From the NCBI GenBank assembly GCA_965153455.1, contig OZ234493.1, positions 27,642,213 to 27,706,212 of the forward strand: a stretch of DNA of 64,000 bases. The letters run 5' to 3'. The notes beneath the pieces were generated by a model that was given only the letters and a program-made list of their open reading frames with translations, ran no database searches and was not told the origin of the DNA. This stretch comes from Sphagnum compactum. Its lineage: Eukaryota. Of this stretch, positions 2,127 through 42,772 are shown one piece after another (positions within the stretch are counted from its first letter, which is position 1; each line of letters opens with the position of its first letter). Made by a program: the position numbers and the translations under genes.

Positions 2127-3201
2127 CGCGTGCTCAGGTTTGAGACTTGTGGTCACGAGCATCGGTTATAAAATTGGAGTTGTAATTTGAAGCGATGGCG
2201 ATGTAGGAGTTGGGAGGATTTTGACTACAGAGGAGCGGGGTTTTGTTGCGATCGGGCTGATTCGTTGCTGGAAGAAGCCTCGGAAGAAGTCTCGGAATCT
2301 AACAACTGTGAGCGGACGGACGGACATTGCAGGTTTATTCCCTCCTCCTCCTTCTCCTCTTCTTCTACATTGCTGCGTCGCATTGTTGCAGTGTGTTCGG
2401 ATTCGGAGTGAATTGGAAGTAATGTCTATCTATCTATCTACTTCGATCGACCCGTCGTAGTTTACAGCCTCCCAGCAGCAACGCACAAATCGACAAAGCC
2501 AAAATGAAGAGAGCTGCAGCCGGATAGCCTGCTGAAGGAAGAAGCATAGCACAAAAGGAAGAAGCAAGGCATGGCTTGATGAAGGAAGAAGTATAGTACC
2601 AAAGGAAGAAGGCAGAGAAGAGAGTCTATACAAAGAATGAAGAGAGGAGCTTCACAAATCGAGAGTCATAAGAAGCTCTGGAAGCTCCAAGAATCTTAAA
2701 TCGCGTAATTCAATTGAGCCTGTTGTGTACTGAGGTTGCTTGAGTTCAGATCCGAGCTCATTCACTCTCTTTTGTCCATGTTTTGTATTCGTCGCTTTTG
2801 AGCTTTTCCTCCTGTGGATGTTGGCGCATATGAAGTTTTTCTCTGTACAACTCTTATGATCAGGCGATTCCAGAATCCCTACTGTTTGAGCTTACTGAAT
2901 ACATGCATGCCATGCTTATCGATCTGCCACTGATTCGTTCTGACACCATTTCTGATCTCCTGGTAGAAAACAGCATCGCTTACCAATGTTAGAGGAAGTA
3001 ATTCTTTGCATAGGATTTGCTGGAATGTGCATTGCATCAGTGAAGAGCAGGAGGAACTTCTCCAGATGGTACAAAAAAGAAAAGAAAAAACAAAAGCCAG
3101 AGAGCAAGCTGCTAGCAATGAATGTAAGTGTGATGCAGCAGACTTGTGTTTTACAGTTTTGGCTAACACAGTAGTAGGGTATTTGGTTTTTCTCGGGTCA
3201 G

Positions 3202-6186
3202 ATGTTTCTCAAGGGGATGAGGATGATGATGATGGAGTTGCCACAGTTCTGTGCCTGCATCTTCCTCATTTTTCTGTGCTGTGTGGAGGAACCTTTTACT
3301 GCTGCTGCACTGAAGCCTCCTAAGTATGGGTCAATTGGAGAAGGAAACATCATGCCAACAGAGGGAGGTGGCAGTGGTGGTGCCATGGAACAGGCATTGG
3401 GAAGCAATCTGGGACAGGGTAGAGTCCTTCTAGAGGCCATCATCAATGATGTCAATGTCCCAAAGGAGATGGCATTGAAGGATGAGAAGGATGTCGAGGA
3501 GACAAAATTGCAGCAGCACCAGGTTGGGGCATCAAGCTCTTTTGATCTACTGCAAAAGGCATTAGGTCTAAAGTATGGGTGGATGCAGCAGGAGAAAGAG
3601 AAAGGACAGCTAGAGGAGGAGGAGGAGGAGGAGAAAACAGGAAACAAAGTGGTACAAGCCCTGAACACTACCATGACAGAGAAGAAGAATTTGAAGAATG
3701 GGGAACTTGAGCTGAAGGCAGAGGAGAACAATTTGTCAATATCTGAAGCTCAGGAGGTTGTGGAGGAGGAAGAGGAGGGATTGATTCCTGTGAAGATGAA
3801 AGTGGGTCATGAAACTGAGCTGAGGTTAGTGGAGGGAAAGAGATTGTCAAATTTCAATGAACAGGAGGAAGTAGTGGATGAGCAAGAAGAAGAGGAATCA
3901 GCTCCTGTGAAGAAGAAAGTGGCAAATGAATCTGAGCTGAAGGCAGCAGCAGCAAACAAGAAGAAAGTTTTGGAATCTGAAGACCAGGAGGCAGTGGAGG
4001 AAGAAGAGGAAGAATCGATTCCTGTGACGAAGAAAGGGCCAAATGAAACTGTGTTGACGGAGGAAGAGAAAGAATTGTCAAAATTTGAAGATCAGGAGGC
4101 AGTGGAGGACAGGGAAGAAGCAGTTCCTCATGTGATGAAGAAACTGGGGAAGGAAACTGAGCTAACAGAGGCAGCAGATGAGAAGAAATTATCAGGATCT
4201 GAACTGAGTCTGGGAGCATTGGAGGAAGAAGAAAATGAGGAAGCAATACCTCAGAGAAAAAGAGTAGGGAAGGAAACTAATATGATAATAGCAGCAGATG
4301 AGAAGAAGTTGTCAGAATCTGAGACTCAGGAGGTAATGGATGAGGAAGAGGAGGAAGCACTTCCTCTGAAGAAGAAACTAGGGAAGCAGACTAATCTGAC
4401 AGCAGCAGACAAGGAGTTGTCAGAATCTGAGTCTCAGGAGGCAATGGATGAGGAAGAGGAAGAAGCATTTTCTGTGAAGAAGAAAATGGGGAAGGAAACT
4501 AGTCTGATAGCATCAGATAAAAAGGAATTGTCAGCATCTGAGGTTCAAGAGGCAATGGAGGTTCAGCAAGCAATTTTTGTGAAGAAGAAAGTGGGGAAGG
4601 AGACTAATCTGACAGTAGCAGAAGAGAAGGAATTGTCAGAAGCTGAGGCTCAGAAGGCTGTGGAGGAGGAAGATGAGGAAACATTTCCTGTAGAGAAGAA
4701 AGTGGGGAAGAACAAAATAGAACCAAATGCTGCAGAGGAGAAGGGACTGTCAATATCTGAGACTCAGGAGGCAGTGAAGAAGGAAGAGGAGGAATCAATT
4801 TTTGTAATGAAGAAGATGGGGAACAAAACTGGGCTGAAAGAAACAGAGGAAAAAAAATTGTTGAAATCTGATTCTCAGGAGGCAGTGGAGGAGGAAGAGA
4901 ATGAAGACAAGGAATCAATTTTTGTGAAGCAGAAACAGGGGACCAAAACTGGACTGAAGGCAAAAGAGGAAAAGGTATTGCCAGAATCTGAAGCTCACGA
5001 GACAGTGGAGGAATCAATTCTTGCAAAGAAGAAACCAGGGAGCATAACTGAGCTGAAGGCAGCAGATGAGAAAGAATTGTCAAAGACTGAAACACAAAAT
5101 CTAGTGGAAGCACAAGAAGAAGAGGAATCAGTCCCTGTGCAGAAGAAAGTGGGAATGGAGATTGATCTGAAAGCAACAGAGGAGAAGAATTTGTTAAAGT
5201 ATGAACCTCAAGATGCTGTGGAGGAGGATAAGGAGGAATCAATCCCTGTGAAGAAGAAAGTGGAAAAGGAAACTGATCTTAATGCATTGGAGGACAAGGA
5301 ATTGTCCAAACCTGAAGCTCAGGAGGCAGCAGAGGAGGAAGAGGAGGAGAAAGACAAGGAGAAGAACAAAGGTGACAATAAATCTCTAGAGGGGATGAGA
5401 ATGAATAACTCACAAGCTGCTGCAGAAGAGGCTGATCCAGCATTAGACCTTGACCCAGTCGAGATTGATCTGCTGCAAGAAGTTCAGGACCTTCCTGCAA
5501 ACTTGCAGCAAACAGTTGGAGCAGTGACAACCCATCTACTTCCGAAAATTCAGCAAATCTCTGGCCAGTCAAAGGACTCATTTGATAAGATCAACAAGAA
5601 TCTAGCTAGCAGCTTCTTGCCTTTGATCGGAGAGAAGTATGCTCCAGTCATTGCAACTATAGTTTCCTATTGTCTTCTAATGCTTCCTTTTGGAGTTGTG
5701 TTGTTTCTTTGTGAGCGAATGCGCAGCATCCTCACTCTGCAGAAAGTGCTCCTCTTCATCAACATCTACCTGGCTGTATATTTTTCAATCCTTTTTGCTC
5801 TTGCCTTGGGACTGGGGGCTGAACCCATTTCTTTCTTCTACAAAAATTCAATGTCTGGTTACATAATCTTGCAGTTGTTACAGGCATTTGGTTACATCAT
5901 CTACATGCTGCTGCAGACAGCCGATATCCTCTTTACATGCTCCATGGGAACGCTATTGGGGAAGTGGTCAGCTGCAATGCAATGCTTGTTGGCAACAATG
6001 GTGGGTCTGCACTACTATGTCACTGTATTCCATAGAGCTATGGCCAGGAAAGCTCCACACACAAGCTGGAAATACTATGGTCTCTACTGCCTGAGCTTCT
6101 TTGTATGCTGTCTTCTCTCCAGGGTCCAGCGTGGCAAAAGAGAGTACATTCCTTTGGGGAATGAGACTACAGACAAGAAGAAATGA
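3202..6186 (+). CDS. Signal-peptide protein with a long E/K tandem-repeat region and a conserved C-terminal multi-pass membrane domain (resembles the plant 'cell wall integrity/stress response component-like' family, At4g39840-like)
   Basis: Uninterrupted 994-codon ORF. Hydrophobic N-terminus FCACIFLIFLCC..TAAA. About 15 repeats. C-terminal ~250 aa has several hydrophobic helices and the motifs LLPKIQQIS, LQKVLLFINIYL, VGLHYYVTVFHRA and SWKYYGLY. A probable 5' UTR intron runs from GT 2735 to AG 3201. The family match is from memory, not a search. Confidence 0.9.
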   Translation: MFLKGMRMMMMELPQFCACIFLIFLCCVEEPFTAAALKPPKYGSIGEGNIMPTEGGGSGGAMEQALGSNLGQGRVLLEAIINDVNVPKEMALKDEKDVEETKLQQHQVGASSSFDLLQKALGLKYGWMQQEKEKGQLEEEEEEEKTGNKVVQALNTTMTEKKNLKNGELELKAEENNLSISEAQEVVEEEEEGLIPVKMKVGHETELRLVEGKRLSNFNEQEEVVDEQEEEESAPVKKKVANESELKAAAANKKKVLESEDQEAVEEEEEESIPVTKKGPNETVLTEEEKELSKFEDQEAVEDREEAVPHVMKKLGKETELTEAADEKKLSGSELSLGALEEEENEEAIPQRKRVGKETNMIIAADEKKLSESETQEVMDEEEEEALPLKKKLGKQTNLTAADKELSESESQEAMDEEEEEAFSVKKKMGKETSLIASDKKELSASEVQEAMEVQQAIFVKKKVGKETNLTVAEEKELSEAEAQKAVEEEDEETFPVEKKVGKNKIEPNAAEEKGLSISETQEAVKKEEEESIFVMKKMGNKTGLKETEEKKLLKSDSQEAVEEEENEDKESIFVKQKQGTKTGLKAKEEKVLPESEAHETVEESILAKKKPGSITELKAADEKELSKTETQNLVEAQEEEESVPVQKKVGMEIDLKATEEKNLLKYEPQDAVEEDKEESIPVKKKVEKETDLNALEDKELSKPEAQEAAEEEEEEKDKEKNKGDNKSLEGMRMNNSQAAAEEADPALDLDPVEIDLLQEVQDLPANLQQTVGAVTTHLLPKIQQISGQSKDSFDKINKNLASSFLPLIGEKYAPVIATIVSYCLLMLPFGVVLFLCERMRSILTLQKVLLFINIYLAVYFSILFALALGLGAEPISFFYKNSMSGYIILQLLQAFGYIIYMLLQTADILFTCSMGTLLGKWSAAMQCLLATMVGLHYYVTVFHRAMARKAPHTSWKYYGLYCLSFFVCCLLSRVQRGKREYIPLGNETTDKKK
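3676..5345 (+). repeat. Coding tandem repeat, ~100-120-bp unit, ~15 copies
   Basis: Protein consensus KKKVGKETxLxAAEEKELSxSExQEAVEEEEEESIPV, repeated with unit length 33-40 aa. Confidence 0.9.
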
Positions 6187-8451: not shown

Positions 8452-11400
8452 ACATTCATCCACAAATTAAACACCTTTCAATGCAAATTTTGATTTACAC
8501 CCTACGATTCATATTTAGGGTGTGAATAAGATCATGAACCATGTAGTTAAAAATCATGTCCATGGTTCACCAGCATCCAAACATAACTTGTGTCTCATCT
8601 TGAAGAAACATAAGATTGATAAAGAAACATTGTTGATGAACACCATAAAAAATAATCAAAACATATTATTACATACCAAGTATGGTTTTGTTCAATGACA
8701 TAATAATGTTTAATAGTGTGATTCATATAAATAAATTCCTCATGGACATCAATAAATTTTATTTTATTTTGTTGGTGGTGGGCTTCTATGATGAGATCTT
8801 CACCCAAAAAAATTCATATTTTGGAAATTCCCAAAATAAATATTGTGTTGTCTATCCATGTGGCCCATTTTATGTAAGAGAAAAAAATCTTATTGTTTTT
8901 AAACCTCCACAACCATGTTGCAAATTGACCAAAAATAAATGGTGGTCGTCACTTTGTATTTTCTTTTTGCCATTTATTTTTCAAAAGCCCTAAGAAAGGC
9001 ATGAATTTCACAATTCTAAAACATAAAAAAATAACAAGATTGATTTTTAACATAAGCTCAAATTATTTTTTAAATAGCAAAGATACCTTTGGAAGTGAAG
9101 CAAGCAAAATGAAATAAAATAATAAGAAAAGATAACAATGAATTCATAAAAATGATAGTGAAATTAAAATATGGTTGTCAATACATTTGTTTGGATGAGG
9201 TGTGTCAAAATATACCCATTTTGGATATTAATCAAATTGACCATTTAGTCATATTAGACAAGTTGTATTGAACACATCTAATTTGATTAGTGGTCTTTAT
9301 GGTTAGTCAAATGAAGGACCATTTGATTTGTCTAATTAGATAATAAATATTGAACACTGATTTATTTTGACCAAAAAAAATATTTTAAAATTACTACCCA
9401 AAATGATTTTTTTGGGATAATTTTTGTCGTTGGTAGGTAGATACCTTGTAAATAGATGCATGTAAATAGACCTATTACCTACTTACATACCTTTTGCCAA
9501 CCTACATACAACATATATATCACGATGTACCTACCTATGTACGAATATGTTCATGACATACACATATACCACATACATCATCATATAAAAAATTCATATA
9601 CATGATTTGTTGAAATTAATTTGAATTTAAAACTTCATGGAAGCATATCAATGCATTTTCCATCAAATCACATAACCTTTTGTTAAAATATGTGCAACAT
9701 TTTATTTTATCATGTCAAACATGAAACCACTTGGCAATTCAATATTTGACATTTCTTTTTTTAAATGTTGTTCAACTGATTTTTAAAAACATGTTTTTGA
9801 GAAATACAAATCATTGACAAGTTCAAACATTTTAAGTTACGAATCTTCTAATTGAAAACCCTATTCATTGTGCAATTCAAGACAAATTCTTTTGAAAACA
9901 TTTTGTAACAATTTCACAATAATTAATTTTTCTCTCATTAAAATTTTAAAATAGTATTCAATGGCATTAAGTTGTAACATCCCCACTAGCATAACATGTG
10001 ACAACATATCGTTTAACACAATGTTATGAATGTACATGGGTACAATGCAACTTCAAATATAAACTTGTAGCATTTACAAATTATTTACAAGAAATTTGAA
10101 TATATATTATAAAATTCAATCTTACTTACAACATTTCTTCATGAATTATGTTTGAATCTTCACAAAATTGAAAAAATGGTGATGGAATTTATAACATTTG
10201 GTTAGTATGCAATTCAATTTGTATTGTGTTAAACACTGCAAGTGAAATTTGAAAAAGATTTGAAATGCTTAAGGGAAAAGATTTTTGTTACAATAACAAC
10301 AATATGTAATTGCTTAGTAGATGCAGTTGTACAAGTTTTAGTAATGAAAAATTATGTAGTGGTTTGTTACAATGGATATGTAAATGAAAGGTTTAAGGTT
10401 TATAATATGTTTGTCTTCCTCGACACGTACTTTTTTGCATAGGTTGATATCCAACTTCTTGCAATAATCCTTCACCATCATAATTGGGTTTTGAAAAAGA
10501 AAAGTTGAATTACAATTGTCAAGATTTGTTTTCTTTAATAAATTTGACACATTTCTTTTTTCCATTCAAAGGTTAAACAACTAACAAAATATGTACACAT
10601 ATAATATACATGGTGTAATGAAAGCTATAGTTTTTGCATTAACAATTTTGAACAAAATAATGAAATTTTGAAAGTTGATCAATATCAATACAATCTATTG
10701 GTTTGGATGGAATCTTTAACATCTATAGATTGTGTTATTGAATTGTATGCAAAAGAATGCTACATTTTCAACAATAAATTCAATTTGAGAAAAACAATTA
10801 TGTTTCTTCCAGAAATTATCACATATACATATATGTGAAAATGATATAATGTTGAAAACAAGTTTCAAAAATGATATACTTAAGGGCAAGAAAACAAACC
10901 TTGAAAGAAATTTTTATTTTTTATTGGTTTTGTTGGATCCATAAGTAATTTAAAGTAAATATATGAATAGTTGAAACATAACTTGTAAAATAAGTCATGT
11001 ACCAAAGCAAAAGTCATTTCAAATGATTCATAAAAGGGTGAAAGCATGATTCGGTATACATTTCATGATCCTTGCCAAGAAAAGTGTGAAGTAACTATAA
11101 ATCAAGCCTTAACATATTAAATTTAAAATTATTATTTAATTTAATGACCAATATGAACATATTCTTTGAATTTATGTTAATGATATTGAAGAATCACATG
11201 TTTAAAGTAGATTTAAGTATTTTTTTTTTAACTTCCCAAGTTCGAAGAAACAAAGTAAACTTCAAATAGATGAAATATTGGATTTTTTTTACTTTTTTGG
11301 TTAATGGCCATCTAAAATTTATTCATACACTTTCAACTTCCAAAGTAAAAGTAATAATATATCAATATTTTAATGTACTAGTATTTGTTAACACAATTCC

Positions 11401-12089
11401 AACAATCAATCTAAAAGATATAACTTTTGACCTACTTTTAATACACTAAAGTTTTCTAAATTTTGTATACAACATACTATAAACCCAATATTATGCATAA
11501 TGATAATTTAACAATGATTGAAAAGGTTTCAACTCTACTTTTTTGCGTTTATGTGTAAAAAATTGACTATAACTAGTCACAACCACTTTTTGAGTATACT
11601 TGATCATGCTTTCACCCAAAAATATAACATGTTCATGCCATATTGGGGTAGTGATGAAGGTAAGAAAGGCCTTCAACATTTGTGGGAACATGGATAACAT
11701 GATCAAGTGTTTGTTGTAACTATAAACAAGTTTGCAATGATTAACCACCTCCCACATTTCACAAAGTTGTTTTTGTTGAAATGGTTTTGCAAGTTTCAAT
11801 TTCAACTTTTTGTTGTATCCTTCCCCTTTTGGACCATACAAAAGGTTGCATTTATGTCTTTTACACACTACAACATATGTGTGTTTTTATGATTGAAATT
11901 TCAGTCAAAATAGATAAGCGATAGATTTGTCTTCAATTAGATTAGATTAGTCATTTTTGTCAAATATATGACTAAGTTTGATGTGATTGATTGAATGCCT
12001 ATTTTCTTGTCTATTTTGACTAAAATGCATGGTGTTTGGTCTAACTCGCCTATTTAAGTGCCTAATTGACATGGTTGCTTAGTGACTTG

Positions 12090-12560
12090 TCTGTTTTGAT
12101 TGAGGTGACTAATGTTTTAACCAATACCTATGTGCCACATGACATGTCTAATGTGATTAAAATTATTAATGTGATTAAAGAACTAACCTATAATTATGTA
12201 TCACATGGCATGTTTAATGTGACTAAAATTATTAAAATGATTAGAACATTACCCTATAATTATGTGCCACATGGCATGTCTGATGTGACTTATATGACTA
12301 GTGTGATTAAAACATTAGGCTGTATCTATGTGCCACATGGCTTGTTAGGTCTAACTGAAAAGACTATGGCCACTAATTTTTAAATCAATATCTAATTGCC
12401 ACATGGCATGTTTGATATGACAAGAGTGTTTAACATGTTAGCTTATAGTTAATTGCCATGTGGCATGTTTATTATGCATGATATGATTGAAGTGACTAAC
12501 CTATAATTGGCTTACAGGTTGGTGCCATGTATGCATGTTTGTTGTGACTATGTGACCAAA
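12090..12560. repeat. Tandem repeat, ~66-bp unit, 5-6 decaying copies
   Basis: Unit core tatgtgccacatggcatgt(c/t)t(a/g)atgtga(c/t)t. It appears as the 22-aa periodicity (YVPHGMS.V) in ORF 12066-12383. Confidence 0.85.
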
Positions 12561-13784
12561 ATTTTAAATGTGTGTGATAAACACTACATTAAATGTCTAT
12601 TATTTATTTGTTTATATTCATTGATTAAGTATTAATTAACAATATTTTGACCATTAAGATGTAGTTTCAATCCTACATAATAATATGTATAAATCTACAT
12701 TTTATGTTGACATTGCACACATACATTGAAAGTTATAATTCACATGATCCCACACAAAACATGCATGAATCATTCGAAACCAACACCCAAATCTAATTTT
12801 GAAATTGCACATACACACACACATTATTTGCAATTGGATATATTAAATTTGACCACAATTTGACAATGTCCAAAAAACATTGTCTCATACAACGTAACTT
12901 GCAGATCATATCTATTTACAAATATGTAGTAGTGTGTTTCCAAGGCCACATTACAACATACCCTATTGCATATTGAATAGTACAAAGTGGAGGATCATGT
13001 GATGAATCAAGACATGGTAAATGAACACCTTTTAATAAGCTATTCATGATGGCAATAGAAAGGAAAATTGTTGACATAGAATGACCATGATGTATAGCTC
13101 TTCCACCCCCAAATTTCATAGAATTTCCAAGTGCTAAATCCAAGTGCCACTAGTGGCCACTACAAGATATGACAATCTAGTCATTTGTGTGATACTATAG
13201 AATAAATGCCAACAGTGCAAGTAAGTATTGCATTATTACATTGTCGCAATGTAAATCAATAGGTAGAAACAAGTGCCAAGATCAAGTGTTAAAGGGATGC
13301 AAGATATTTAGGGTTTTAGTAATAAATTATAAATTTTTAATTGCAACAAGTACCTTGTCCAAAAAAATTGTCAATCCATAGCTACGCTAATGAGTATCAT
13401 CAAATGAAGGAGATGAAGAACCCTTGTAATGTTTAACAAATGAAAATCAAATAAGGAAAATCCAAATAGGGCAATGTTGATTGATTTACATTCAGGTGGA
13501 TATCTTTTCCATTTATAACAACTATTTCCTTTGCTTTCTCCTTTGCAAAAGTTATTTGAACCCACCTGTAACTAGCAGAGTTTCGCATTGAACCACTTTT
13601 CTTTCGCAAAAGTAATCCCCCTACCTAAATTGAACTTCATGGAAAATTGTTCATCTACAAAATCCCAAAGACAAGATCAAATACACACAATTTGCCATGC
13701 CCATCATTTATATAGAGTTTGCTTTGTAAAATGGTTTTACTACCAATCACCTAGGTTGTAAGAGACCATGCAAAATCCCTTTAG

Positions 13785-14395
13785 GCATTCCAATGTGGGT
13801 TTTTTCTTGTAAGTTGATACTTGTGTGAATTGAAACATACATACTTTAAGGTACTTGGAGCCTTAGACAAGCCAACCAAGCAAGGCTACAATTGTTCTAA
13901 TAAGTAATTGTTCCTCCACCTCACCATCAAACGGATTAAGCATGATGTGGGAGAATGGGGCATTCCTAATACACTTATATGAAGTATCATCTATCAACAA
14001 CATATTAGTTGGACCTAACTACTAGCTACAACTTGGACTAATCTATGCCCAAACCTTATCCATTTTTTTCAACACTAACTGCTAGTTTGGATTTGAAGGA
14101 TAGGCAAAGCTTGTCTCTAAACATTTTTCCACACCCCATATGAACATAGGTTTGACACTTAACATTCCGTCCAACACAAATTGAACCATAGGGGTCAAGT
14201 TAGGTTGTGTTGTTGAATACTAAATCCCAATGTCAAATCTAAAACCACACATTTCTAAAAATTCATGATAGCCAGGTTGTGGGCTTACAAACTTATTGCC
14301 ACACCTCATTACTTCAAGTAATGGTTTCCATTCCTTTCTAGACTTCACATGCATTGCTTGACCTAACAAGCCATTCACATCTAACATAGGTACCA
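13785..14395 (-). pseudogene. FCP1/NIF (CTD-phosphatase-like, HAD superfamily) domain pseudogene
   Basis: Manual minus-strand translation gives MLDVNGLL...QPGYHEFLEMCGFRFDIGI*YSTT...FIWGVEKC...LVLKKMDKVW...NMLLIDDTSYKCIRNAP...(frameshift)YLLEQL*PCLVGL...NPHW. These are the motifs of plant FCP1-homology proteins, in order, with at least 5 stops and a frameshift. Confidence 0.8.
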
Positions 14396-15479
14396 TGTTA
14401 ACAATCATGTTTGGATAGGAAAGTTTGCAATTGCCCACCTTTTTTTGGGCAATCAAACCTTGATTGCTTTTGACATTGTTGGAAACATCAGTTATGAGTA
14501 ACAATGTGGTGGGCCATCCATGACCACCAACTTTCCACGAACATTTGATCTAATTTGCCTTTTGTTGTTAGTGGCCTTTTGATTGGGGGTAGAACCTTTA
14601 AATGCCTGTACCACCATGTCTATGGCCACTTTTTGATGTTTGCTTATAAACATGTTAGAAGGAGTTACTACATTTGTAGCTAGGGTAGGCTCAGGAAAGC
14701 CATCTCCTTTTTATTCCATCTAGTTTGTAGGTGAAGAATTTAATCCACCAACCTACTTACCACATCCCACATTATACAGACCCCACGGCCCATAATATTA
14801 GATATGTTAAATAAAATATCTGCATTGCTAGGTCTTAGACATCCAAACCTCTAGAAAAAATGATCAAAATACAAGTTATAAACAATTTTTACCGCTCCCA
14901 TACTATCCTCATTCATCCATAACTTGGAGGCATCATCTGATGGTATTTGTCTCCTCAAATCAAGATAGATTGTTGCAAATAATGGTTAAAATTTTCATGA
15001 AGGTAAACATCTCTGTCATTGTTAAAAACATTTCCTTTTGTGTTTACACTAGTTGATCTTGGGAAGATTTCAAAAATTCATGGGTGGATTTTAGGTCTTC
15101 AATAGCCTTAATAATTTCTTCATGGTTATTCTCCATGGCCTCTAGGTGAATCTCAAGCTCATATGTTAGGCCTTGGTTCGAATTGCCCACATTATTGTCT
15201 ATTGCCACATCTTCTTGAAAAACATTAACAAGTTAAACATATGAACAAGGAAACCTCAATTCCATGTCCAACCCCTTCCTAATGAGAATAATACAATTCT
15301 ATAAAAATAATATCAAGACCTATCCCTTAGATATACATCACTACATTTGGATTGTCCAAAGAGGGAGACAAATAACTAAGTACCTAGGTACAAAAAATTA
15401 AAAGTATGAAATTTTAAGATCAACAAGCAAATCCACCAAAATGAAAACAAAAATTGTGGTATTGGTGATGTTTTAACTC

Positions 15480-15840
15480 ATCTTCCTCTAGATCAAGACT
15501 TTGGCGCTTGGAGTTTTTTTCCCTATTTATTTCTTTTTGAAGCTCCATCAATGTAGGCTTTATTTTTAATTCTGCCTCCTAAACCACATCAAGCCCACAC
15601 ATCAAGTTATTGAATCAATTCCCAGCAATGCACAAAATTACAAAGCCAAAAAGTTTGATATGGTAGAAAGTTTGTGGTCAAGGATCACCCTTTTCTATCA
15701 TTTTCTTCAAGAATCTTGGCCTACCTTTCAAGACAACTATCACTTGATCTTTCACGTGCTTGTAACCAAGGGGATAATCTAAATATTCAAACCCCATCTT
15801 TTATGCTTCCTTGATTGCTTGAATATCTTTTTAAGGCATT
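15480..15840 (-). pseudogene. TnpA-like (CACTA ORF2-type) coding remnant
   Basis: KDIQAIKEA*KMGFEYLDYPLGYKHVKDQVIVVLKGRPRFLKKMIEKGDP*P. It appears related to the plus-strand remnant at 18585-18790 (GKPMGGGRNN*LIALRGY..L..TIDDI..QP). The family label is an inference from context. Confidence 0.45.
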
Positions 15841-17789
15841 ATAAATATGAACAAACAAGAAAAATAGAAAGGGGCATCCCAACTTCATATAGATGACATC
15901 AAAATTTGATAATTTCATATGATTACCTAGATGCAAAATTATACATGAGATGGTCAAAAATTAAATCATAGTAGCCCCTAACTAATCTCAACACAGATAA
16001 TCCCAATTTGGAACAAACTAATTTAATAATTGCAAACAATAAGGGTATAGTTAGAAATTTGATGACTTTCTAATAAATTCATTTGGGATCCCATGTGAAC
16101 ATTTATCCCAAATTTGACAAAGCTCATGCATGCATGACCACTTCAACTTGTAAATTAAAATTGCAATGACATGAATGATACAATCATTTAAGATTAGATA
16201 AAGGAATTATTTAGCTTAACCCATGAAAAAATCCCTTAAAACTAATTTTAATAATTTTAAACCCCCTAGTATTTAAGGCAAGGCACTAAACAAACATAAG
16301 ATTGTCAATTCTTAATTACTAATTTCTAATACAAGCCATAAATACGTGTTCAAGCTTACTTTTTGGTTAGAAAAATTAATGAAATTGATATGTCATAAGT
16401 TAGGAAATGAAGCTCAACATATGTTTTAGCAAGTCATAAAAAATAAATTCTATTTCCTTTTTGTAAAAATATACTTTCACTTACTTGAAACCAAAAGCCC
16501 ATAGTGAAAAATAAACATCAAAAGCTACTTGTATTTTGAAAAACCTACTTAAAATTTACTTTTACAATTTGAAATATGAAAATCAATGCACATTAGTGTA
16601 ACCATATATTATATTTAATCATTGAAATGAAAACATTCAATGTTCCACAATTCTGTAATGGGTTTTGTTGTTATTTTAAATGTACGTGTTCCAATTTTGA
16701 CAAGGTAATCAAGTTGTTCACATTATTTATCTTCACCCAAGAGAGCAAAGGAATGAAAGGCTTCAAATTAGATTCACACCTCAAGGCAAACAAAGATTTT
16801 GGTGAAGAAGATGTTGAAGATGAAGTAGAATTTGATAGGTCTATTGAGAGTTGGAAAAAGGATAAAGATTTGATCTAGGTAATGTTTCTTGAAATCCTAA
16901 TTCTTTGATGCATTTGTCTTCATTTTTTGTTTTTTGGCATTTCTTGAAATCAAGAATGATGGAAGAGATGGAAGGCCCTAGAATGCCAATTGTGGCAAGA
17001 TTTCAATATGACATTTTATAATAATAAATTTCTCAATCTAACATTGGAAGAAAAGAATTCAATCTAGTATTTCAACTTGCTTCATTCATTCTCTTCGCTT
17101 GTGCTTTAAGTCTTGATGTAACATTTAAATTGATTCAACATTCAATTACTACATCAATGTTTTGCTATAAAATTTTGCATCAAGAACCACTAGACCTTCT
17201 TAAAAAAATAAATTGACTAATTCTAATTAGGTCTTTTAACTATCTCCAAGTTTCAATCAAAACGATCATTTATTTTGGTTATAAACTATTCTCCCCACCC
17301 CCTTTTCCATTGTACTTAAAATGGTCTTGAAGCAACACCAAGTTATAACTTTACTTTTGACATTGGTTTAAAACATGTGGGCATGTTCTGTGTGCCATGT
17401 TTGGATAATAGAAGAAAAGGTGTGGAAAACAAAAACCAAAACAATGGATGGTGTGGAAACCTTCAATGGTGCTTGTTGATCGACTCAACATCCAACTAAC
17501 TAAATCTCATTCCTTCTCATAGCAAGATAAATCAAGTTTTGGTGAGGAGAAGACAATGAGGAAGGGTAATTAAAAAACATGGAAATGCCAACAATTGGTG
17601 GCATCGCCAATTTTCATGAAATAAGATATTTAAGCCAAGCTACAACTATTGGTTTAGGTTTATAAATCTTCTCTTGCAATCAATTTAGGTTTGCAACATG
17701 TGAAAATAGTGGCGACATTTGATTTAGTTTGTTTCTTCTTAATTTGTTTTGATGATTTACAAAATATCAACTTCACGCTTCACCTATTG

Positions 17790-19000
17790 TTGTACCCCAA
17801 AACCCTCCAACACCCACTAACGTACCCCTAAACCCCATGGCACTTGCTACAATACAACAACACCCCCTAATACCTCTTGCAACACCCTAAAACCCTCTAG
17901 CATCGTTTGTAACACCCCAAAACCCCATTCCCAATACACCAAGTTGGCTTTTGGGGTGACCTTTGCTTCATGGTTGGCAATGGTCTAATGGAGGTTGGCT
18001 AGTGCCTTCTGGTTAGCTAATGCCAAATAGGGTACAAACACCACCCATTGCCTACCAACAAGCCCCAACAATTGATGGCCATTATAACCTTGTGATGCCT
18101 TTACTTCCTAGTCAATCTCCACAAATGCAACCTATATCCAATCAATATCACCAAATCCCGCCACTTGCACCTACTCAATACACACATATACCTAAATCAT
18201 TGCCTCAATGTATATGCCAAACCTAATGGCATTTGTTCAAATCATAACTACCCATGGGATCCAATCAATATCAAATGATGCCTTCAACATTTCCTGCAAT
18301 TCCAACAACAATGTATACAACCACTAGAATTACTTGAAACAAGTACCCCAACAATGCCATAATTTCCTGCAAACATACAATTCAACACAACAAAAGGTCA
18401 ATCTAATGTGGGGTTGGTTTAGGTACAAATGCATCTATCCAACTAGACAACACTATTGTTTCATATTATCAATGTTTTTGGCAAGCTGAACAATGGGTGA
18501 ACAATTGGACAAGGTGACGAGACACCTAAAAATTGAAGTGGCTACATTTCATAGTAAAAAAATCAAACTTGTTGTGCATTACAATTTTCAAGGGAAGCCT
18601 ATGGGTGGTGGAAGGAACAATTAGTTGATAGCACTTCGAGGCTATCCCTTGAAGCTCAATTTAACCATTGATGACATCTATAAGCAACCACCAATAAGGA
18701 TACATATCTCCTACACCCACATTCCTTCAAACAATGCAAAGTATAAATTTGTAGGTAGAAAATTTTATCTATAAAAAAATGTCACTAACATACGATCCTT
18801 TTTTTTTGGGTAGGCTATAATGCATGATGTCAAAGGAAAGGTAATTACCAATTGCACATATGCAACGGCATATTGATGCCTAAAAGTTGTTTGATGTTAA
18901 AAAAATTGAAGCAAACCAACAAGGTTTAACATCTTACAAGTGCCCATGCACACGTTGCCATGGTGGAAGACAACAAGTTCGTAGCACAATTTAAACATCT
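17790..19000 (+). pseudogene. CACTA coding remnants: Pro/Gln-rich segment, TnpA-like segment and transposase-associated CPCxxC domain
   Basis: Pro/Gln-rich ORF 18020-18226. 18902-18995 translates as KIEANQQGLTSYKCPCTRCHGGRQQVRSTI*, followed by HL codons, typical of the N-terminal transposase-associated domain of En/Spm transposases. Confidence 0.6.
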
Positions 19001-21148
19001 ATGTCTTAAAATACTTTTTAAAAAAAAAAAACTTTGATAATTGCAAACAATAAGATGTGGGTTGATATTCAGGAACATGGTTGTAATTATGAAATTTATT
19101 TTACATATTATACATAAATGTTTTTAGTTTAATCCTCCATTTTCTTAATGTTCACATGTAAAATTTGGTTGTTTTTTCCATTTACACCCCCTATTTCTAT
19201 GCACATATGACTATAGAAGAATAATAATTAAAGAACTAGACAATTGTATTGTGTTTGTAGGCATATTTTCATAGTTTTAGAATTTAAAAAATTTTATCAA
19301 TTAAAATATTGCAACATAAACAAAAAGTTGCAATATAATCACATTTAGTCAAACTTAGACGACAACTTTTAAAAACATTAGTCAATTTAGTTAAATTGGA
19401 CAACTCCATGTAAGCAACACATCTACCATGTGGCTAGACTACTGTCCAAGTTGACTAAGTTGTTATTTTTTCAGTCATAATGGACATGCTCTCTTTTTAT
19501 GTTAGTCATATTAGACATGATTAATCAATTTGGACAAGTAGCATAGTCACAAATGACTATAGAGTCATCTTAGTCACAATGTTAATAGTGTAAAAAGTTA
19601 AAACCATACTTTTATTATATAGATGGTTTTTACAATTTCACACTTGTGTGAGGACCAAGCACATTGAAAGAAGTCCATCAATTTTTTTTGTCGTGCGAAG
19701 GATATGTCCATGAAGAATTGAAAGAAATTGATGTTGTTCAAACTTAAAGAATTTAAGTGACTATGCTTTTACATTTGTAAATGACATCCCAGTGTGCCTT
19801 TAGATTCATGTTGCGCTTCATATTATTGCCCATGCCACCACAACTTGTAGAATAGGTAGTCCATAGTGGTAGCTACACAACATATTATTGAGGTTATTTC
19901 ACTTTCAGAAAACACCACAATGGATTGTGGAAGATTTTTGGTGTTAATGAACGTTGTGGGATTGGGGGTTGCCACTCAAACATGGTTTCATCATAATGGT
20001 TTGTATACGCATGTTTTCACATCATGGACAAACTCTTTGACCTAATGGATGATTGTTTCGACATGATGACACAATGTTTTGTCATGTTGGAATGCTAGTT
20101 TGACCTAATAGATATGAGATTACTCAACATTGAATGGATGTTGGAGAATTTAGTCAAATTGGAATCCAGGAAGTGACATGCTTTTATCCTTTTATATTGC
20201 GTATATTACAAAGAAGAAAAATGTTGAAGTTTCAAGCTTTTTGATTGTTTGAATAACTTGTTCTAAGGACACAAAACTTTATTCTTGTCTTTTTTTACCA
20301 TTAGTATTTATTTGATTTGAGATGTGATATATGGGTCAAAATGTGTCAAATATTTTATGGGTCAATATTTTAGACCACCACATATTTAGAACCATCAATA
20401 TCATTCACTTTGTGTTCACATATATAATGAAACAAGACTAATAAATGAATATAAAAAAAGGTGACATTGTGACACATTTTTGGTATACTTTAAAAAATTG
20501 AACCTAGTAATCAATCAATTACAATAATAAAATAAAATTTGATCTTTTGGTGGCCAAAAGACAAATTGAAATTTATAAGTCTAAAACTTGTTGTAAAGTT
20601 TAGTAAGAATGATTATGTATTGTTTATATGTATTAAATTGACTATTCTACCCTTTGTAATGCTCAACATTCTCATTGGTAGAATAATCAATGTACAAGTA
20701 ATGTCAATGTCATTAGATTATTAACAAATATTAATGCTTTGAAAAATTTAACTTAATTTCTAGAATTTTAACATTACATTTCAAATTCCAATTTGATTTT
20801 TTTGCAACACATGATCACCTTGGATTGTCCTAATTGAATTTATGTTTAAAAATGTGATCCATATCATTTAGTTGGGTGGTGTTCTTCAAGTTTAATAAAT
20901 TTTTCGTTTTTTTGTCATTATGGCCTTCAAGTGAATAAACTTTCAAACTCCATGAAAATGCATCTTGTGTTCACGTTTCTTTGGTAGAACCTTATGATGG
21001 ATTCACAAATCCAAAAGAGTTGAAAAATCATTGTCAATAATTCAAATCAAGTGAACAAGGATACAAATTGCAAAAAAAAATTTCAATTTAAAGAATTCAC
21101 ATTGTTAAGTATAATACCTTATCCATTAATGAATCAACAAATGAAAGA

Positions 21149-30672: not shown

Positions 30673-33600
30673 ATGGCAGCAGCAGCAGCAGCTCATGTAC
30701 TAGTCTCCTCCTCCTGCTGCTGCTACACTGCTGTGAACCAGAGCTTTGCCTTGACTGTGAAGAAGCAGGCACGAATTGCACCTGGGAAGCTTATTCTTCG
30801 CGATACTCAATGGCTGACACCAGCAAGCCTGGGTGAAGAAGATCATCATCATCATCATCATGTGAGCGTGAGGTCAAGCCATGGACTGAGAAAAGGAATC
30901 TCCAACAGAGAGATTATTACATGTAAATTACTTTGTGTAGCGGCAAAGTCCGGATTCCTTACAGCTCTGCAGAGGCTTGAGGTGTCTCATAACCATGTAC
31001 AAAGAGTTGCTTCTGCAGCTGCTGCTACGGCTTCGTGCAAAGCGTTGAGTGAAAGCTCAAGCGCTAGGCAGCAGAAGGGCGGCGATGTCGCTGAACCTAA
31101 TTTTGGGGGTGGAGGTGGTGATGGAGACAATGGTGGCGAGGATGGAGACGAGAAGAAGGAGGATATTGACGATGGAGAAGATTTGCAAGAGAAGAAGAAA
31201 GAGGGGATCAGCGGGTGGCTACCAGATTGGATCAATCTTTCCACCGAAGATAGCAAAACCATTCTTGCGGCTTTTACTGTTTCTCTTGTCTTCAGATGGT
31301 TTATTGCTGAGCCCAGATACATCCCTTCTCTCTCCATGTATCCCACATTCGAAGTTGGCGACCGCATCATCGCTGAGAAGGTACGTAGGTATGACGATGA
31401 TAGGTCCACAATCGGAACAAACTCTTTCTTTCTTTCTTTCTTTCTTTCTTCTTCAGCAGATTCGGGCAAATGTCGGTGGTGACCTAATTAGGGTTAGGGT
31501 TTCAGATTCGCAGAATGCAAACGTACCTTATCAAGTATCAAAGAAACTGGAAATCCAACAATGTTGGTCTCTGAAACTATGATGCTTTAGATCAACATCT
31601 TTGATGAGTTTTCTGTTGCAAATTAGAGCAAAAAAAACCCTAATCAGGGTTAGGGTTTCAGGTTCCAGCAGAATGCAAGTACATTATCAAATATCGAAAA
31701 AACTCGAAACTCAATGTCAATCTTTGAGACTATAATCCTTAAATCAACATCTTTGATGAGCTTTCTGTTGCAAATGAGTGCTAACACCCTTAATTAGGGT
31801 TACGGTTAGGGTTTCAGGTTAAAGCAGAATGCAAGTACATTATGAAATATCAAAGAAACTGGAGACTCAATCTCAATTTCTGAAACTATGATGCTTAAAT
31901 CAACATCTTTGATTAACTTTCTGTTGCAAATTAGAGCTTAAAAACCTAATTAGGGTTAGGTTTCAGTATTGAGCAGTATGCAAGTACCTTATCAAATATC
32001 AAAGAAACTAGGAACTCACTGTTCATCTCTGAAACTGTGATGCTTAAATCAAAAAAATTGATGAGCTTTTTGTTGCAAATTTTATGTTCTTGTGTTACAA
32101 TTTATGGCTGCCATATGGGGGGGGAAAGCAGTCTGCAACAGACATGGAAATTTCAAACCACAACAGCAAACTACAGAACATGACTCTGTCAACTTTTTGA
32201 GGGTTTCAGAAGAACAACGATTGGGAATGAGGATTGTGGAATTGACAAATACTTCAATGTTGGCGGTTTTCCTTTTGTGCAGGTTTCTTATTACTTTCAG
32301 AAGCCAAGTGTAAATGACATTGTAATATTCAAGGCTCCCGAAGCATTGCAGGTGTGAATCTGAAATTTTTTATTCTAGCTTTGACTGTGAATTGGGTTTC
32401 ATTTCTTCTTGGAGATATCAATAGAAAGTCTGTGGTATTTAGTACATTAGCCTGATAGGTACTGACTGGAACTCTGAGCAATCACTCTATAAAACAGTTC
32501 TGATTAGCAATGCTGTGCATGATTGCGCCATATTTTTGCTCCTATCACTTTAACATGAAGCAGCATACAATTGACTAATGATTGGCACATTGGTCACTCT
32601 TCACTATGCTATCTGCAAAGTTGTATTCCCTTGAGTCTAGAAATTTTCCAGTTCAATTTTATGATTGAAGTTAGAACACACATTTCCTCTCTGAACAAAT
32701 AGCATGCCATGACATAGAAGTTAGCAACAGATTTTATGTCAAATTGAGTTTGTTTGTGAACATTTGAACCATGTTTGCCACAGAGTCTAGAACTGATGGG
32801 GAATCCGGGTGTTGGGTTTTCCAGGAAAAGGGTTATGCTGCTGGAGAGGTTTTTGTTAAAAGAATAGTGGCACAAGCTGGTGACATTGTAGAGGTATTGC
32901 AACTCTACTATAAAAATTGAGTGGTCAGCACTAATTCTTTCCTCTGGTTCTGTCCCCGTCTCCAGCTGGAATGAGGGTTCTATTTACAAGTTGAAGTTGT
33001 GGTTCTTGTATTCTATCAATTTAAGGAGAGATAGATTTGTCCATTTGCAGTGGAACCCGACACAGATTGAGAGGGAGAACAGACTTATGTGATTTGTCGC
33101 ATTTGGTTCTTGCGTTCAGACCACCATCACAGTGTCATATACTTTGTCTGCAGTAGACATCTTCATATAAACCAGATATATCATAGATTTGGAGTTTTTT
33201 GTTGTGTTGCACAGATTTTTTGGCTATGTTTCTGATGTTCACATGGTGATTCTCAAGCTCTAAAGATTATCACTGTTGTTTAGAGTATCCAACATACATT
33301 ACTGAAATTCTTAAATGTTTGACAGGTGCATAAAGGGAAGGTGTATGTGAATGGCCAAATGAAGTCAGAAGACTTTATTGCAGAACCTCCGGTTTATGAC
33401 ATGAAGCCCACTGTATGTGCCTATCCTGTATTTTAAATACAGACACATAATTTGAGACCTTCACCTAGGATCTGCGCACAAGGGTTTAGGGTTTAGGGTT
33501 TGGTGCTTGCAAAAATTGCAGTTGGGTTTGAAGATAATTGAGAATCATTCGAAGAAATCTTTGCATCCGGTTACAACTCTGAAAAACCCCTTGTTAGAGG

Positions 33601-40961: not shown

Positions 40962-41280
40962 CTTTGGCAATCCAAGTTCAGTCTTCAAAAATCGGGGGGT
41001 TTAGCTCACTGAGGCTCCACACTACTTGTAAGGACTCCCTAAGCTGTCATAATGCTTTTTTCTCTCATGACTGAGAATTCATCAGAATCTTTGAAAGAGT
41101 GAGAACCACTTTACTTGTCTTTGGCAATTCAAGTTCAGTCTTCAAAAATTGAGGGTTTAGGGTTTAAAGCTCACCGAGGCTCCATAGTTGTGAGGAGACT
41201 CTTAGCTGCCAGAATGCTTTTCTCTTGTGCTTGAGAATTCATGAGAATCTTGGAAAGAGTGAGAGCTACTTTACTCATAT
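40962..41280. repeat. Tandem duplication (~158 bp) of the kinase gene's C-terminal codons plus proximal 3' UTR
   Basis: 40962-41118 is a diverged copy of 41119-41280 (ctttggcaat.caagttcagtcttcaaaaat...ctcac.gaggctcca...tgagaattcat.agaatctt.gaaagagtgaga). Confidence 0.85.
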
Positions 41281-42772
41281 TGGGTCTCGAGTTGGGATCA
41301 GGATCCACACAATCCTTGGCCAGCTCTGCAGTCTTGAGTGCGTAGTCAAGAGGAGCAGAGTCTCCAAGCAAGGGATCCATCCATGCTCGTAGTCTTCTCC
41401 CCGGTTCCTTGTCTGCAAGGATGGACCTTATGACATCAGGGAGATGAGTCTTCTTCAAAGTGTTTGTGCCAGTCTGATCTGCAGTCTGGCAGAAGCTCGC
41501 CACCTCCTTGCCTGACATGATTTCCAACAAAATCACACCAAATGCAAACACATCAAGCTTTGGCGTGATCAAACCACCAGCTTTCTCCTCTGGTGCCATG
41601 TACCCATGTGTCCCTGAAATCCGGATGCTGTGAGATTGTCTGAAAGTTGAGCGCTGTACTCGGACTCCTCCTGGAAGTTGCATCACCCTTGTAGAAGAAG
41701 ACTGATGATGATCTGAGCCTGTATGATCCCTTTGCTCTTGCAGCTCTCCACTAGTACTTGGTGTGCTCCTGCTGGAACCCTGACCCTCTGCTGCTGCTGG
41801 TGATGTACCCATCTGATCTTGAATTTTCGCAACTCCAAAATATGCAATTTGAGCATGAAGTTCAGTGTCCAAGAGGATATTGCTACTTTTCAAGTGTTTG
41901 TGAACAAAGGGTCCAGCATATGTATGGTGATGGAGATATTCAAGTCCCTTGGCAACATCAAGGACCACTTGCAGCCTGCTTGTCCAAGTGGGAAGACCTG
42001 AGAATCCTGGCGAGTACTGGCTGTGAAGGTATTGTCGCAGGTTTCCACTGGCAATAAACTCATAGACGAGATAAATCTGGCCATGTTGCACATTGATGCA
42101 GCCACCGATGAGTTTCACAAGATTTGTGTGATGTACACTACACAAGTTCTTCATCTCAGCAACAAAATCTGAGCCTCCTCTTCCTGATCCCTTGTTGCTA
42201 TTGTTGTTCTTGAGCACCACGACTGCTACATCCATGCCATGAAGAGAACCCCGAAACACAGAATTGCCCACTTTCTTAGCAGGATGGAAATTCTCTGTTG
42301 CCATGCTCAGATCCTTGAGTTTGAAAATGATAGCTCCATCTGAAAGCATATCCTTGATGCCTAGCACCTGCTGCTGCTGCGATGATATCACACTGCTGCT
42401 GCTGCTGCTAGTGCTGTAATTCGCGGAGGAGTCGACTTGTGAGGAGGAATCCTTTGACAAAGTCTGGCTAGAAATCGTAGTTGTAGCGGTGGTGATGGAG
42501 TTGGTGGTGGTGCTCATGCTGCTGCTGCTGCTGTCGTGATACGGCAGCCGCCACACTAGAGCTGCCTTAAGCTTACTTCTTAGACTGGCAGTACTGAAGA
42601 CCTTGAGGTGCTGCTGCTGCTGCTGGGAACATGAGCTTGCTGCTGCTGCAGGACTAGTAGAGCTGCAGGTAGTTGATCTTGATGAGCAGCAGTTGCGTGC
42701 AGCTGCGCCAGTCTGCTGCCGCTGCTGCTTTGACACCATTATCCTCATTCGCTTCATGATGATCATACACAT
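41171..42772 (-). CDS. Intronless receptor-like cytoplasmic kinase with a LysM-RLK-related kinase domain, probably a pseudokinase (At3g57120-like)
   Basis: 533-aa ORF with a Ser/Gln-rich N-terminus and no TM. Kinase subdomains ATENF, HHTNLVKLIG, LVYEF, W..RLQV.LDVAKGLEYLH, GTHGYMAPE, DVFAFGVILLE, C..PDP..RP.M. Catalytic motifs are altered (VAVV, HKH, YFG). Confidence 0.9.
   Translation of the reverse strand: MCMIIMKRMRIMVSKQQRQQTGAAARNCCSSRSTTCSSTSPAAAASSCSQQQQQHLKVFSTASLRSKLKAALVWRLPYHDSSSSSMSTTTNSITTATTTISSQTLSKDSSSQVDSSANYSTSSSSSSVISSQQQQVLGIKDMLSDGAIIFKLKDLSMATENFHPAKKVGNSVFRGSLHGMDVAVVVLKNNNSNKGSGRGGSDFVAEMKNLCSVHHTNLVKLIGGCINVQHGQIYLVYEFIASGNLRQYLHSQYSPGFSGLPTWTSRLQVVLDVAKGLEYLHHHTYAGPFVHKHLKSSNILLDTELHAQIAYFGVAKIQDQMGTSPAAAEGQGSSRSTPSTSGELQEQRDHTGSDHHQSSSTRVMQLPGGVRVQRSTFRQSHSIRISGTHGYMAPEEKAGGLITPKLDVFAFGVILLEIMSGKEVASFCQTADQTGTNTLKKTHLPDVIRSILADKEPGRRLRAWMDPLLGDSAPLDYALKTAELAKDCVDPDPNSRPNMSKVALTLSKILMNSQAQEKSILAAKSLLTTMEPR

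Follow-up and report, generated by a model that had tools for sequence, protein, structure and literature searches.

A NIF/FCP1-fold domain as a probable long-kept cargo of an old CACTA transposon family in peat moss

The element and its family

The window analysed here is a 64,000-nucleotide stretch of the Sphagnum compactum genome (contig OZ234493.1, positions 27,642,213 to 27,706,212 of the forward strand; window positions below count from its first letter). It harbors a decayed CACTA transposon of the En/Spm type, whose second gene ends in a NIF/FCP1-like domain of the HAD (haloacid dehalogenase) superfamily. It is likely that this domain is a genuine, long-kept cargo of an old CACTA family and not a one-off capture. 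Complete members of the family carry two divergent genes between CACTA termini, one for a TNP2-type transposase and a multi-exon second gene. A moss CACTA family with an FCP1/NIF-type accessory domain had been proposed in a first-pass annotation made from the sequence of the window, and the related loci bear this proposal out: the domain lies inside CACTA termini, and TNP2 remnants and the same upstream exons adjoin it.

Metagenome contigs were scanned by pattern, and of the 142 matches 18 encode relatives (loci L001–L018). The 19 copies referred to below are these loci and the window copy, several of them being one locus repeated (L005/L006/L007, L009/L018, L014/L016 and L010/L012, each set 98–100% identical in the NIF region). 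The domain is multi-copy and falls into at least four deep subfamilies with 56–69% mutual nucleotide identity; the four groups are window/L001 with L005 and L014, L002/L017, L004, and L009/L011/L003/L010/L013/L008. The membership, linkage and order of the family parts are directly observed: in diverged copies the order of the conserved blocks is constant and runs, in window positions, 18995–18844, 18690–18368, 15820–15685, 15590–15469, 15168–15083, 14384–13745 (NIF), 13134–12921 and the subterminal array at 12500–12200. The features of the window copy are the following.

~11866–19622, minus: whole element, a decayed, TNP2-deleted, internally inverted CACTA copy; the second gene is on the minus strand outside the inversion
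11866–11879, plus: 3' terminus CACTACAACATATG; L014 has the equivalent ...GTTATAGTG, then unrelated flank
12118–12467, plus: subterminal array of 66 bp period with motif GCCACATGGCATG (Tandem Repeats Finder: 3.5 copies of a 66 bp unit; self-match)
12921–13134, minus: conserved block 3' of the NIF domain, with 70–74% nucleotide identity to L003, L010, L011, L012 and L013 at the same distance from NIF
13148–13171, plus: internal CACTA-like motifs CACTAGTGGC and CACTACAAGATATG, through which L014/L016 and L001 run
13863–14411, minus: NIF/FCP1-like HAD domain pseudogene with motif DVNGLL, in one frame, without frameshifts, that is interrupted by 5 stops
15044–15232, minus: coiled-coil exon (LEAMENNHEEIIKAIEDLKST...), an open reading frame (ORF) kept in L003, L004, L009, L010, L012 and L015
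15469–15590, minus: charged exon (ELKIKPTLMELQKEINREKNSK...), 72% nucleotide identity to L004 843–967
15672–15831, minus: C-terminal half of the conserved exon (MGFEYLDYPLGYKHVKDQV...), cut by the inversion; continuous in L009:7994–8278
15833–18694, no strand assigned: inverted segment, in the other orientation in L001, L002, L004, L009 and L018
16340–16726, no strand assigned: high-copy repeat of ~390 bp inserted in the element, depth 1474–4391 versus ~35 in neighbouring bins
16727–16878, plus: candidate acidic exon (…NKDFGEEDVEDEVEFD…), on the plus strand owing to the inversion; resembles L009:5490–5873 (…NKEFGEEDMKDK…) by eye
17756–18367, plus: Pro/Gln-rich coding region 5' of the conserved exon; equivalent Pro/Gln-rich ORFs lie directly upstream in L009, L003, L010 and P0193
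18368–18690, plus: N-terminal half of the conserved exon (…KLVVHYNFQGKPMGGG…), parted from the other half by the inversion
18844–18995, plus: remnant by the TNP2 gene start, 72–74% nucleotide identity to L003, L009, L017 and L018 beside their TNP2 ORFs
19281–19622, minus: 5' subterminal and terminal region; L011 315–649 matches 19619–19281

Broken TNP2 genes lie upstream of the NIF domain, on the opposite strand, in all four loci with enough upstream DNA, and give these Pfam matches:

L017: Transposase_21 (9.5e-34), DUF4218
L003: Transposase_21 (8.9e-27 and 2.5e-10), DUF4218
L009: Transposase_21 (1.1e-24), DUF4218, DUF4216
L011: Transposase_21 (9.2e-14), DUF4218

The remnant at 18844–18995 reads …YKCPCTRCHGG…, which we take to resemble the Cys motif of the plant "transposase-associated" N-terminus; Pfam gave no match for it. 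TNP2 is otherwise deleted from the window copy. Because of this deletion the copy is non-autonomous, and further damage comes from a 2.9 kb inversion, an inserted repeat and stop codons.

The limits of the element are set where homology between copies stops. L014/L016 match the window continuously from 14387 down to 11863 and then diverge, and the homology of independent copies stops at 11863–11866. In the L009 group the homology of five loci stops at one point, where L009 ends in …TTTATAATAGTG (on the other strand, CACTATTATAAA). The 3' ends of the family, at which homology between copies breaks off, are of the ...TATAATAGTG type. The 3' flanks of L009, L011 and the L003 group differ, and together with those of L014 and the window they make at least five distinct 3' flanks. 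The left end had been placed at 13148 in the first-pass annotation, and this placement does not hold, since other copies run through the position and homology stops at CACTACAACATATG. As a true alternative end 13148/13158 was rejected: only the L005–L007 locus stops matching there, while L014/L016 and L001 continue. L005 and L014 represent one locus or a duplication of it, with differences only beyond 13148/13158, so that an indel in L005 is no less likely than a real end at this point. A third exact CACTACAAGATATG occurs at window position 50980.

The right end proposed at 19590 stands in part: an inner CACTATTAAC is found there, and a degenerate outer end near 19622 may be the limit instead. 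The inner 5' end, CACTATTAACATTG, is the reverse complement of 19577–19590 and lies ~30 bp inside the degenerate outer 5' end at 19609–19622. In L011 the 5' end starts with CACTATTACAAAAG, which aligns to window 19619–19609, a sequence that is degenerate in the window. Termini beginning with CACTA in inverted orientation are accordingly present at the 3' end at 11866, at the inner 5' end, in L011 and in L009, the outer 5' end of the window copy being degenerate. A subterminal inverted repeat pair is formed by 13169–13189 and 19548–19568. Seven of the window's eight matches to GCCACATGGCATG-like motifs fall inside the subterminal array, versus 1.2 expected by chance, and the array is kept in L003, L009–L014 and L016. 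No second copy of the element was found within the window. Apart from the inversion, window positions 24000 to 9546 and locus L001 are collinear (86–92% identity), flanks included; L001 therefore represents the same insertion in a genome related to that of the window. Since a locus ~10% diverged also has it, the insertion is old.

The 2.9 kb inversion splits the conserved exon of the second gene, whose halves stand 2.9 kb apart on opposite strands in the window. Contigs from two DNA runs (X1 and X2) span both inversion junctions, so the inversion is not an assembly slip. Within it, loose read ends pile up at 16340 and at 16726–16728 and mark sharp boundaries of the inserted repeat, which, in Hi-C reads and two DNA runs alike, is covered 40–120x as deeply as the adjoining sequence. 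The ends of this repeat look like direct, not inverted, copies (…ATACGTGTTC…), and similar sequence may follow the break in L005. The region 18928–19455 has 3–5x the depth of the rest of the element (DNA contigs), which means that near-identical copies in the genome are more numerous for the transposase-proximal and terminal part than for the NIF part. In the NIF alignment of the copies many disabling stops go back to TGG turned into TAG or CAA into TAA. Differences between runs are mostly transitions, which fits methylation-driven C-to-T decay of silenced repeats.

L011 and L005/L014 are two different derivatives, formed by deletion or rearrangement, in which the upstream exons of the second gene are missing and the NIF domain is kept. 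The break positions are L011 6355–6359, L005 7767 and L014 5549 (window 14387); in both derivatives the retained part starts at most ~45 bp from the NIF start.

The second gene

The ancestral order of the second gene is acidic exon, Pro/Gln-rich region, conserved exon, charged exon, coiled-coil exon and a large last exon (~14710–13863) that ends in the NIF domain. The conserved exon is a single open exon of 95 residues at L009:7994–8278 and is conserved in every group of copies (L001, L002, L003, L004, L010, L012 and the window); the Pro/Gln-rich stretch runs directly into it. The L004 ORF 854–970, which corresponds to the charged exon, is bounded by a conserved AG acceptor that is also found in the window. 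More generally, AG acceptors and plausible GT donors, the latter partly decayed, flank the conserved blocks of L004, as judged by eye in this one copy. The arrangement suggests that the NIF domain is probably fused to the upstream exons in one protein.

The TnpA-like remnant that the first-pass annotation had seen at 15480–15840 consists of two conserved coding blocks (15672–15831 and 15469–15590), for which the name "TnpA-like" finds no support in Pfam or sequence comparison. Pfam gave no family at E<=1 to 10 for the conserved domain in the window frames, L009:7994–8278, L004:108–572, L002:8091–8432, P0193 and P0194. A protein search with the conserved exon retrieved only two short moss-type fragments, unannotated and free of Pfam domains. 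The ESM Atlas search returned no score >=0.9, the best (0.89) belonging to bacterial hypothetical proteins. The upstream exons gave no match to the long NIF homologues apart from one marginal match of 38 residues. The coiled-coil version of L010 matches Pfam ANG-1-like at 2.6e-6, slightly below the cut-off.

The NIF domain, its fold and its motif

Both the coiled-coil ORF and the NIF HAD domain on the minus strand are present as first annotated, the latter with 540 homologues. The window domain reads …LDVNGLL … IGI*YSTT … FIWGVEKC … LLIDDTSYK…. Pfam NIF matches the window copy with 16.9 bits (E=0.0054, profile 6–145 of 160), the cut-off of 21.8 bits not being reached, and this weak match is obtained only from a trimmed 183-residue read-through. 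Single ORF fragments and long read-through frames gave no Pfam match, and a PDB sequence search with the window copy gave chance matches only. A phmmer comparison with 1.84 billion representatives has its best match at 1.9e-37; 540 proteins reach E<=1e-3, and 186 of them E<=1e-10. All 31 long homologues scanned contain Pfam NIF and none of these a transposase family. Many short protein fragments are 41–87% identical to the window NIF, and nearly all that cover the motif read DVNGLL. The L002 copy is better preserved: it has one stop in 211 codons and matches Pfam NIF above the cut-off with 32.0 bits (E=1.1e-7, profile 2–157 of 160), and its segment 9950–10222 matches NIF (PF03031) with 25.9 bits.

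The L002 domain was modelled by AF2 (AlphaFold2) from an alignment of 33 rows, with a pLDDT (predicted local distance difference test) of 92 and a pTM (predicted template modelling score) of 0.88. Foldseek comparison of the model with the PDB places Tim50 first (E=5.2e-8), followed by SCP1/2/3, CTDNEP1, UBLCP1 and FCP1, the top matches ranging from 5e-8 to 4e-5. There are 32 PDB matches at E<=0.001, all those listed being Tim50, SCP, CTDNEP1, UBLCP1 or FCP1 chains; other, more distant HAD phosphatases appear only beyond E=0.003. The predicted structure shows that the domain has an FCP1/SCP/Tim50-like fold.

The conserved Ser/Thr, Lys and DD motifs of the FCP1/SCP phosphatases are present by alignment. 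The catalytic motif D-x-D-x-T/V is replaced by D-V-N-G-L in nearly all transposon-type (TE-type; TE, transposable element) rows that cover it, a few decayed copies differing, and host relatives in the alignment read D-[VIML]-N-G. The D-x-N reading had been noted in the first-pass annotation as a feature of the window domain that left catalysis uncertain. The motif is indeed there and is not a defect specific to this copy: host genes of the plant subfamily share it, so that, to judge from the alignment, D-x-N is the ancestral state of this subfamily, with nothing transposon-specific about it, and not damage to the window copy. The second Asp of D-x-D serves as general acid/base, as known from work on SCP1. 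The host proteins P0023, P0026, P0034, P0064 and others read D-x-N-G-L-L and not D-x-D-x-T, and this large group may also consist of pseudophosphatases.

Selection and descent

The dN/dS ratio (nonsynonymous to synonymous divergence) was calculated on the NIF codon alignment by the Nei–Gojobori method (NG86), with shifted frames of the same pairs as control. Between subfamilies (13 pairs, dS ~0.9–1.6) it is 0.21–0.38 in frame, versus 0.50–1.29 and 0.71–1.54 in the shifted frames. For the recent pair of the window and its ortholog L001 the values are alike in all frames (0.62 in frame, 0.62 and 0.49 shifted), as expected for neutral decay. The conserved exon (nine between-subfamily pairs) gives 0.22–0.45 in frame and 0.33–0.60 and 0.82–1.52 shifted, a weaker contrast over a short stretch. 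The NIF frame and the conserved exon were under purifying selection while the subfamilies diverged.

A tree of 75 rows was built from 9 translated copies, 4 TE-type database fragments and 62 domains of the best-scoring matches, chosen by ascending protein number. Cluster duplicates, domains of less than 110 residues and lower-ranked matches were left out; the tree is an unrooted quick search without bootstraps. The 13 TE-type rows form one clade (SH-aLRT, the Shimodaira–Hasegawa-like approximate likelihood ratio test, 99) on a stem of 1.58, apart from both P0008 domains and from the angiosperm proteins. The long-branch row P0046 joins the TE clade at a support of 83, a position flagged as possibly false. 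P0008 is the best intact relative, a tandem-NIF protein of 588 residues whose cluster members come from several Sphagnum species; the other long matches looked up by name are angiosperm "FCP1 homology domain" proteins.

Selection and phylogeny, both named in the first-pass annotation as checks of its proposal, speak in its favour: purifying selection acted in the past, and the TE-type NIFs form a clade of their own. The domain is neither single-copy, nor nested in a host clade without selection, nor unlinked to CACTA, the outcomes that had been named there as refuting.

Other features of the window and of the loci

Several features outside the element are recorded for completeness.

3178–6186, plus: open frame of 1002 residues with many ~40-residue Glu-rich repeats and a hydrophobic C-terminus; no Pfam family
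30673–31482, plus: open frame with a partial signal peptidase S26 match (7.7e-7)
41171–42781, minus: open frame of 536 residues with a protein kinase domain (PK_Tyr_Ser-Thr, 4e-32) and Ser/Gln-rich low-complexity sequence upstream; probably a host gene
50502–51712: zinc-knuckle-like ORF (…HICGDIGHKIIECP…) and a downstream ORF, resembling retroelement gag and protease; no Pfam match

In L010 a hAT transposase (9200–11245, minus; Dimer_Tnp_hAT 1.4e-16, Hermes DNA-binding domain 4.5e-5) lies ~2 kb downstream of the CACTA 3' end.

Discussion

The findings are best explained by an old CACTA family that kept the NIF domain as part of its second gene. A different origin would be a passenger capture, in which a CACTA element picked up a host NIF gene in the manner of Pack-type elements and the cargo is useless to the transposon. 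Such a history would agree with the pseudogene state of 19 out of 19 copies, with the D-x-N motif shared by host NIF genes (P0008 and its Sphagnum orthologues), and with the low copy number and the lack of RNA seen. Pack-type cargo is expected to be close to a host parent and to evolve neutrally. Here the domain is whole and none of the four deep subfamilies has lost it, and it is kept even in the derivatives that lack the upstream exons. It has ~32% identity to the nearest host protein and at most 38% to long host proteins and sits on a long, separate branch. Its in-frame dN/dS of 0.21–0.38 at dS ~1 stands against frame-shift controls near 1. We therefore regard a passenger capture as unlikely.

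The selection signal in the NIF domain and the conserved exon might also have come from copies serving the host, if the second gene was co-opted and the transposon surroundings are left over from an earlier state. Transposon genes are often domesticated, and no active element has been seen. Domestication is nevertheless quite improbable, as every copy found is broken, and copies still have TNP2 remnants, subterminal arrays and termini, features that usually disappear from domesticated genes; nor is there a long annotated TE-type NIF protein among the matches listed, though annotated Sphagnum proteomes are in the collection. Least credible of all is that a decayed host NIF pseudogene merely lies beside CACTA debris and was never transposon cargo. 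This would be in line with no target-site duplication being recognisable and with the left end at 13148 not being real, and it is contradicted by the recurrence of NIF, exons and termini among loci whose 3' flanks are of at least five kinds and by TNP2 in four of four loci with enough upstream DNA.

Several observations weigh against the interpretation of NIF as long-kept cargo, or against parts of it. An open frame across the NIF domain exists in 0 of the 19 copies, so that the intact copy envisaged in the first-pass annotation was not found; the longest open overlap with the domain is 408 nt, in a copy truncated beyond. The transcripts envisaged there were likewise not seen: ~12% of one poly-A RNA run (85% likeness) yielded 13 partial reads, all on repeats and none on NIF. 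Among the 150 matches listed, all those of >40% identity are at most 186 residues long and no long protein exceeds 38%, hence no long gene model contains the TE-type domain, despite the annotated Sphagnum proteins in the collection; when longer proteins were sought with the NIF query, none turned up. The family has a low copy number, the depth of the NIF region being about that of single-copy DNA at >=85% identity (DNA contigs). A 3-bp target-site duplication was looked for and none is recognisable, the window flanks being aca on the left versus taa or atg on the right; in L001 they are aaa versus taa. No similarity of the conserved domain to TnpA/Transposase_24 or another Pfam family could be detected, and fusion into one protein is read from the conserved order and the splice-like sites seen by eye in L004. 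With D-x-N in place of D-x-D the second Asp is lost, and robust phosphatase activity is therefore doubtful. The terminal decay of the pseudogenes adds noise to dN/dS. The related loci all come from a handful of metagenome data sets, with several duplicates of one locus. As far as seen, the family looks old, low-copy and extinct.

En/Spm elements of maize and other plants encode a TNP2/TnpD transposase plus TnpA. The moss family resembles them in its CACTA termini, its short subterminal motif arrays, the TNP2-type transposase of its members (Transposase_21, DUF4218, DUF4216), the second gene beside the transposase and the frequent internal-deletion derivatives. In contrast to En/Spm, the second gene of the moss family lacks detectable TnpA/Transposase_24 similarity and ends in an FCP1/NIF fold, its two genes are divergent and not read from one promoter, and no 3-bp duplication is recognisable in the old window copy.

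Accessory host-directed proteins include VANC of the VANDAL Mutator-like elements and the ULP1 protease domains of Mutator-like and CACTA elements. As in these carriers, the element contains a non-transposase domain that was kept by selection across subfamilies. Unlike them, the moss cargo has a HAD-superfamily FCP1/NIF fold and is neither a VANC protein nor a ULP1 protease; any anti-silencing role would be hypothetical.

With SCP1, FCP1, CTDNEP1 and UBLCP1 (PDB 2q5e, 3l0b, 3ef1, 8ujl, 3shq) the domain shares the fold (Foldseek probability 1.00, TM-score 0.6–0.78 for SCP chains), whereas sequence identity is 11–19% and the moss D-V-N-G-L lacks the general acid/base Asp. The best structural match, Tim50 (PDB 3qle, 4qqf; E=5.2e-8), is a precedent for this fold as a peptide binder and not an enzyme: Tim50 has the FCP1 fold but no catalytic activity, and its ligands are presequence peptides. 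A peptide-binding role of the moss domain is plausible by this analogy, the relationship being limited to the fold and the cellular setting being different.

The closest relatives are plant D-x-N "FCP1 homology domain" proteins, such as the Sphagnum tandem-NIF protein P0008 and Asteraceae proteins with two NIF domains and DUF724 (30–38% identity). They have the D-[VIL]-N-G-L-L motif and the Pfam NIF match in common with the TE-type domains. They differ in being single-locus genes with other partner domains, and the TE-type NIFs form a separate clade with a long stem and signature residues of their own (RCGNK, WGVEKC, YKCIGN).

The mechanism that these features bring to mind is a tentative one. 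The second gene would encode one protein in the role of TnpA, whose conserved domain would bind the 66-bp-spaced subterminal motifs and whose coiled coil would pair the element ends. The NIF domain would give a grip on a phosphorylated host protein, the obvious candidate being the C-terminal domain (CTD) of RNA polymerase II (Pol II), acting either as a weak phosphatase or, which D-x-N makes likelier, as a pseudophosphatase that binds phosphopeptides. Expression or transposition of the transposon would thereby be tied to host transcription. That the NIF domain acts on the CTD or on silencing is a conjecture that we would not rate highly. The same low expectation attaches to the full scheme, in which a peat-moss CACTA lineage would have built its TnpA equivalent around an FCP1-fold pseudophosphatase that docks on the phospho-CTD or another phosphoprotein of transcription or silencing, so that the element could draw in or halt transcription at its own termini, or weaken host silencing.

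In literature titles and abstracts, with subscription journals and Repbase outside the scope, no description of a CACTA or En/Spm element with a NIF, FCP1 or HAD domain was found, so that a NIF/FCP1 cargo, not described there, is apparently new for CACTA transposons. To our knowledge, few DNA transposons carry host-directed domains, VANC and the ULP1 proteases being the examples that we can name. If the cargo interpretation is true, an FCP1/NIF fold selected across deep CACTA subfamilies would be a new class of host-directed cargo. Known proteins of this fold target the Pol II CTD, a hint at a connection between transposons and the control of transcription or silencing, and the CACTA family might then encode a reader or an eraser of the CTD code. 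For annotation, it follows that NIF-like matches in moss genomes can be transposon debris. The family also offers a handle on the widespread, little-studied plant D-x-N "FCP1 homology" subfamily: if the transposon version binds phosphopeptides, the host versions may do so too.

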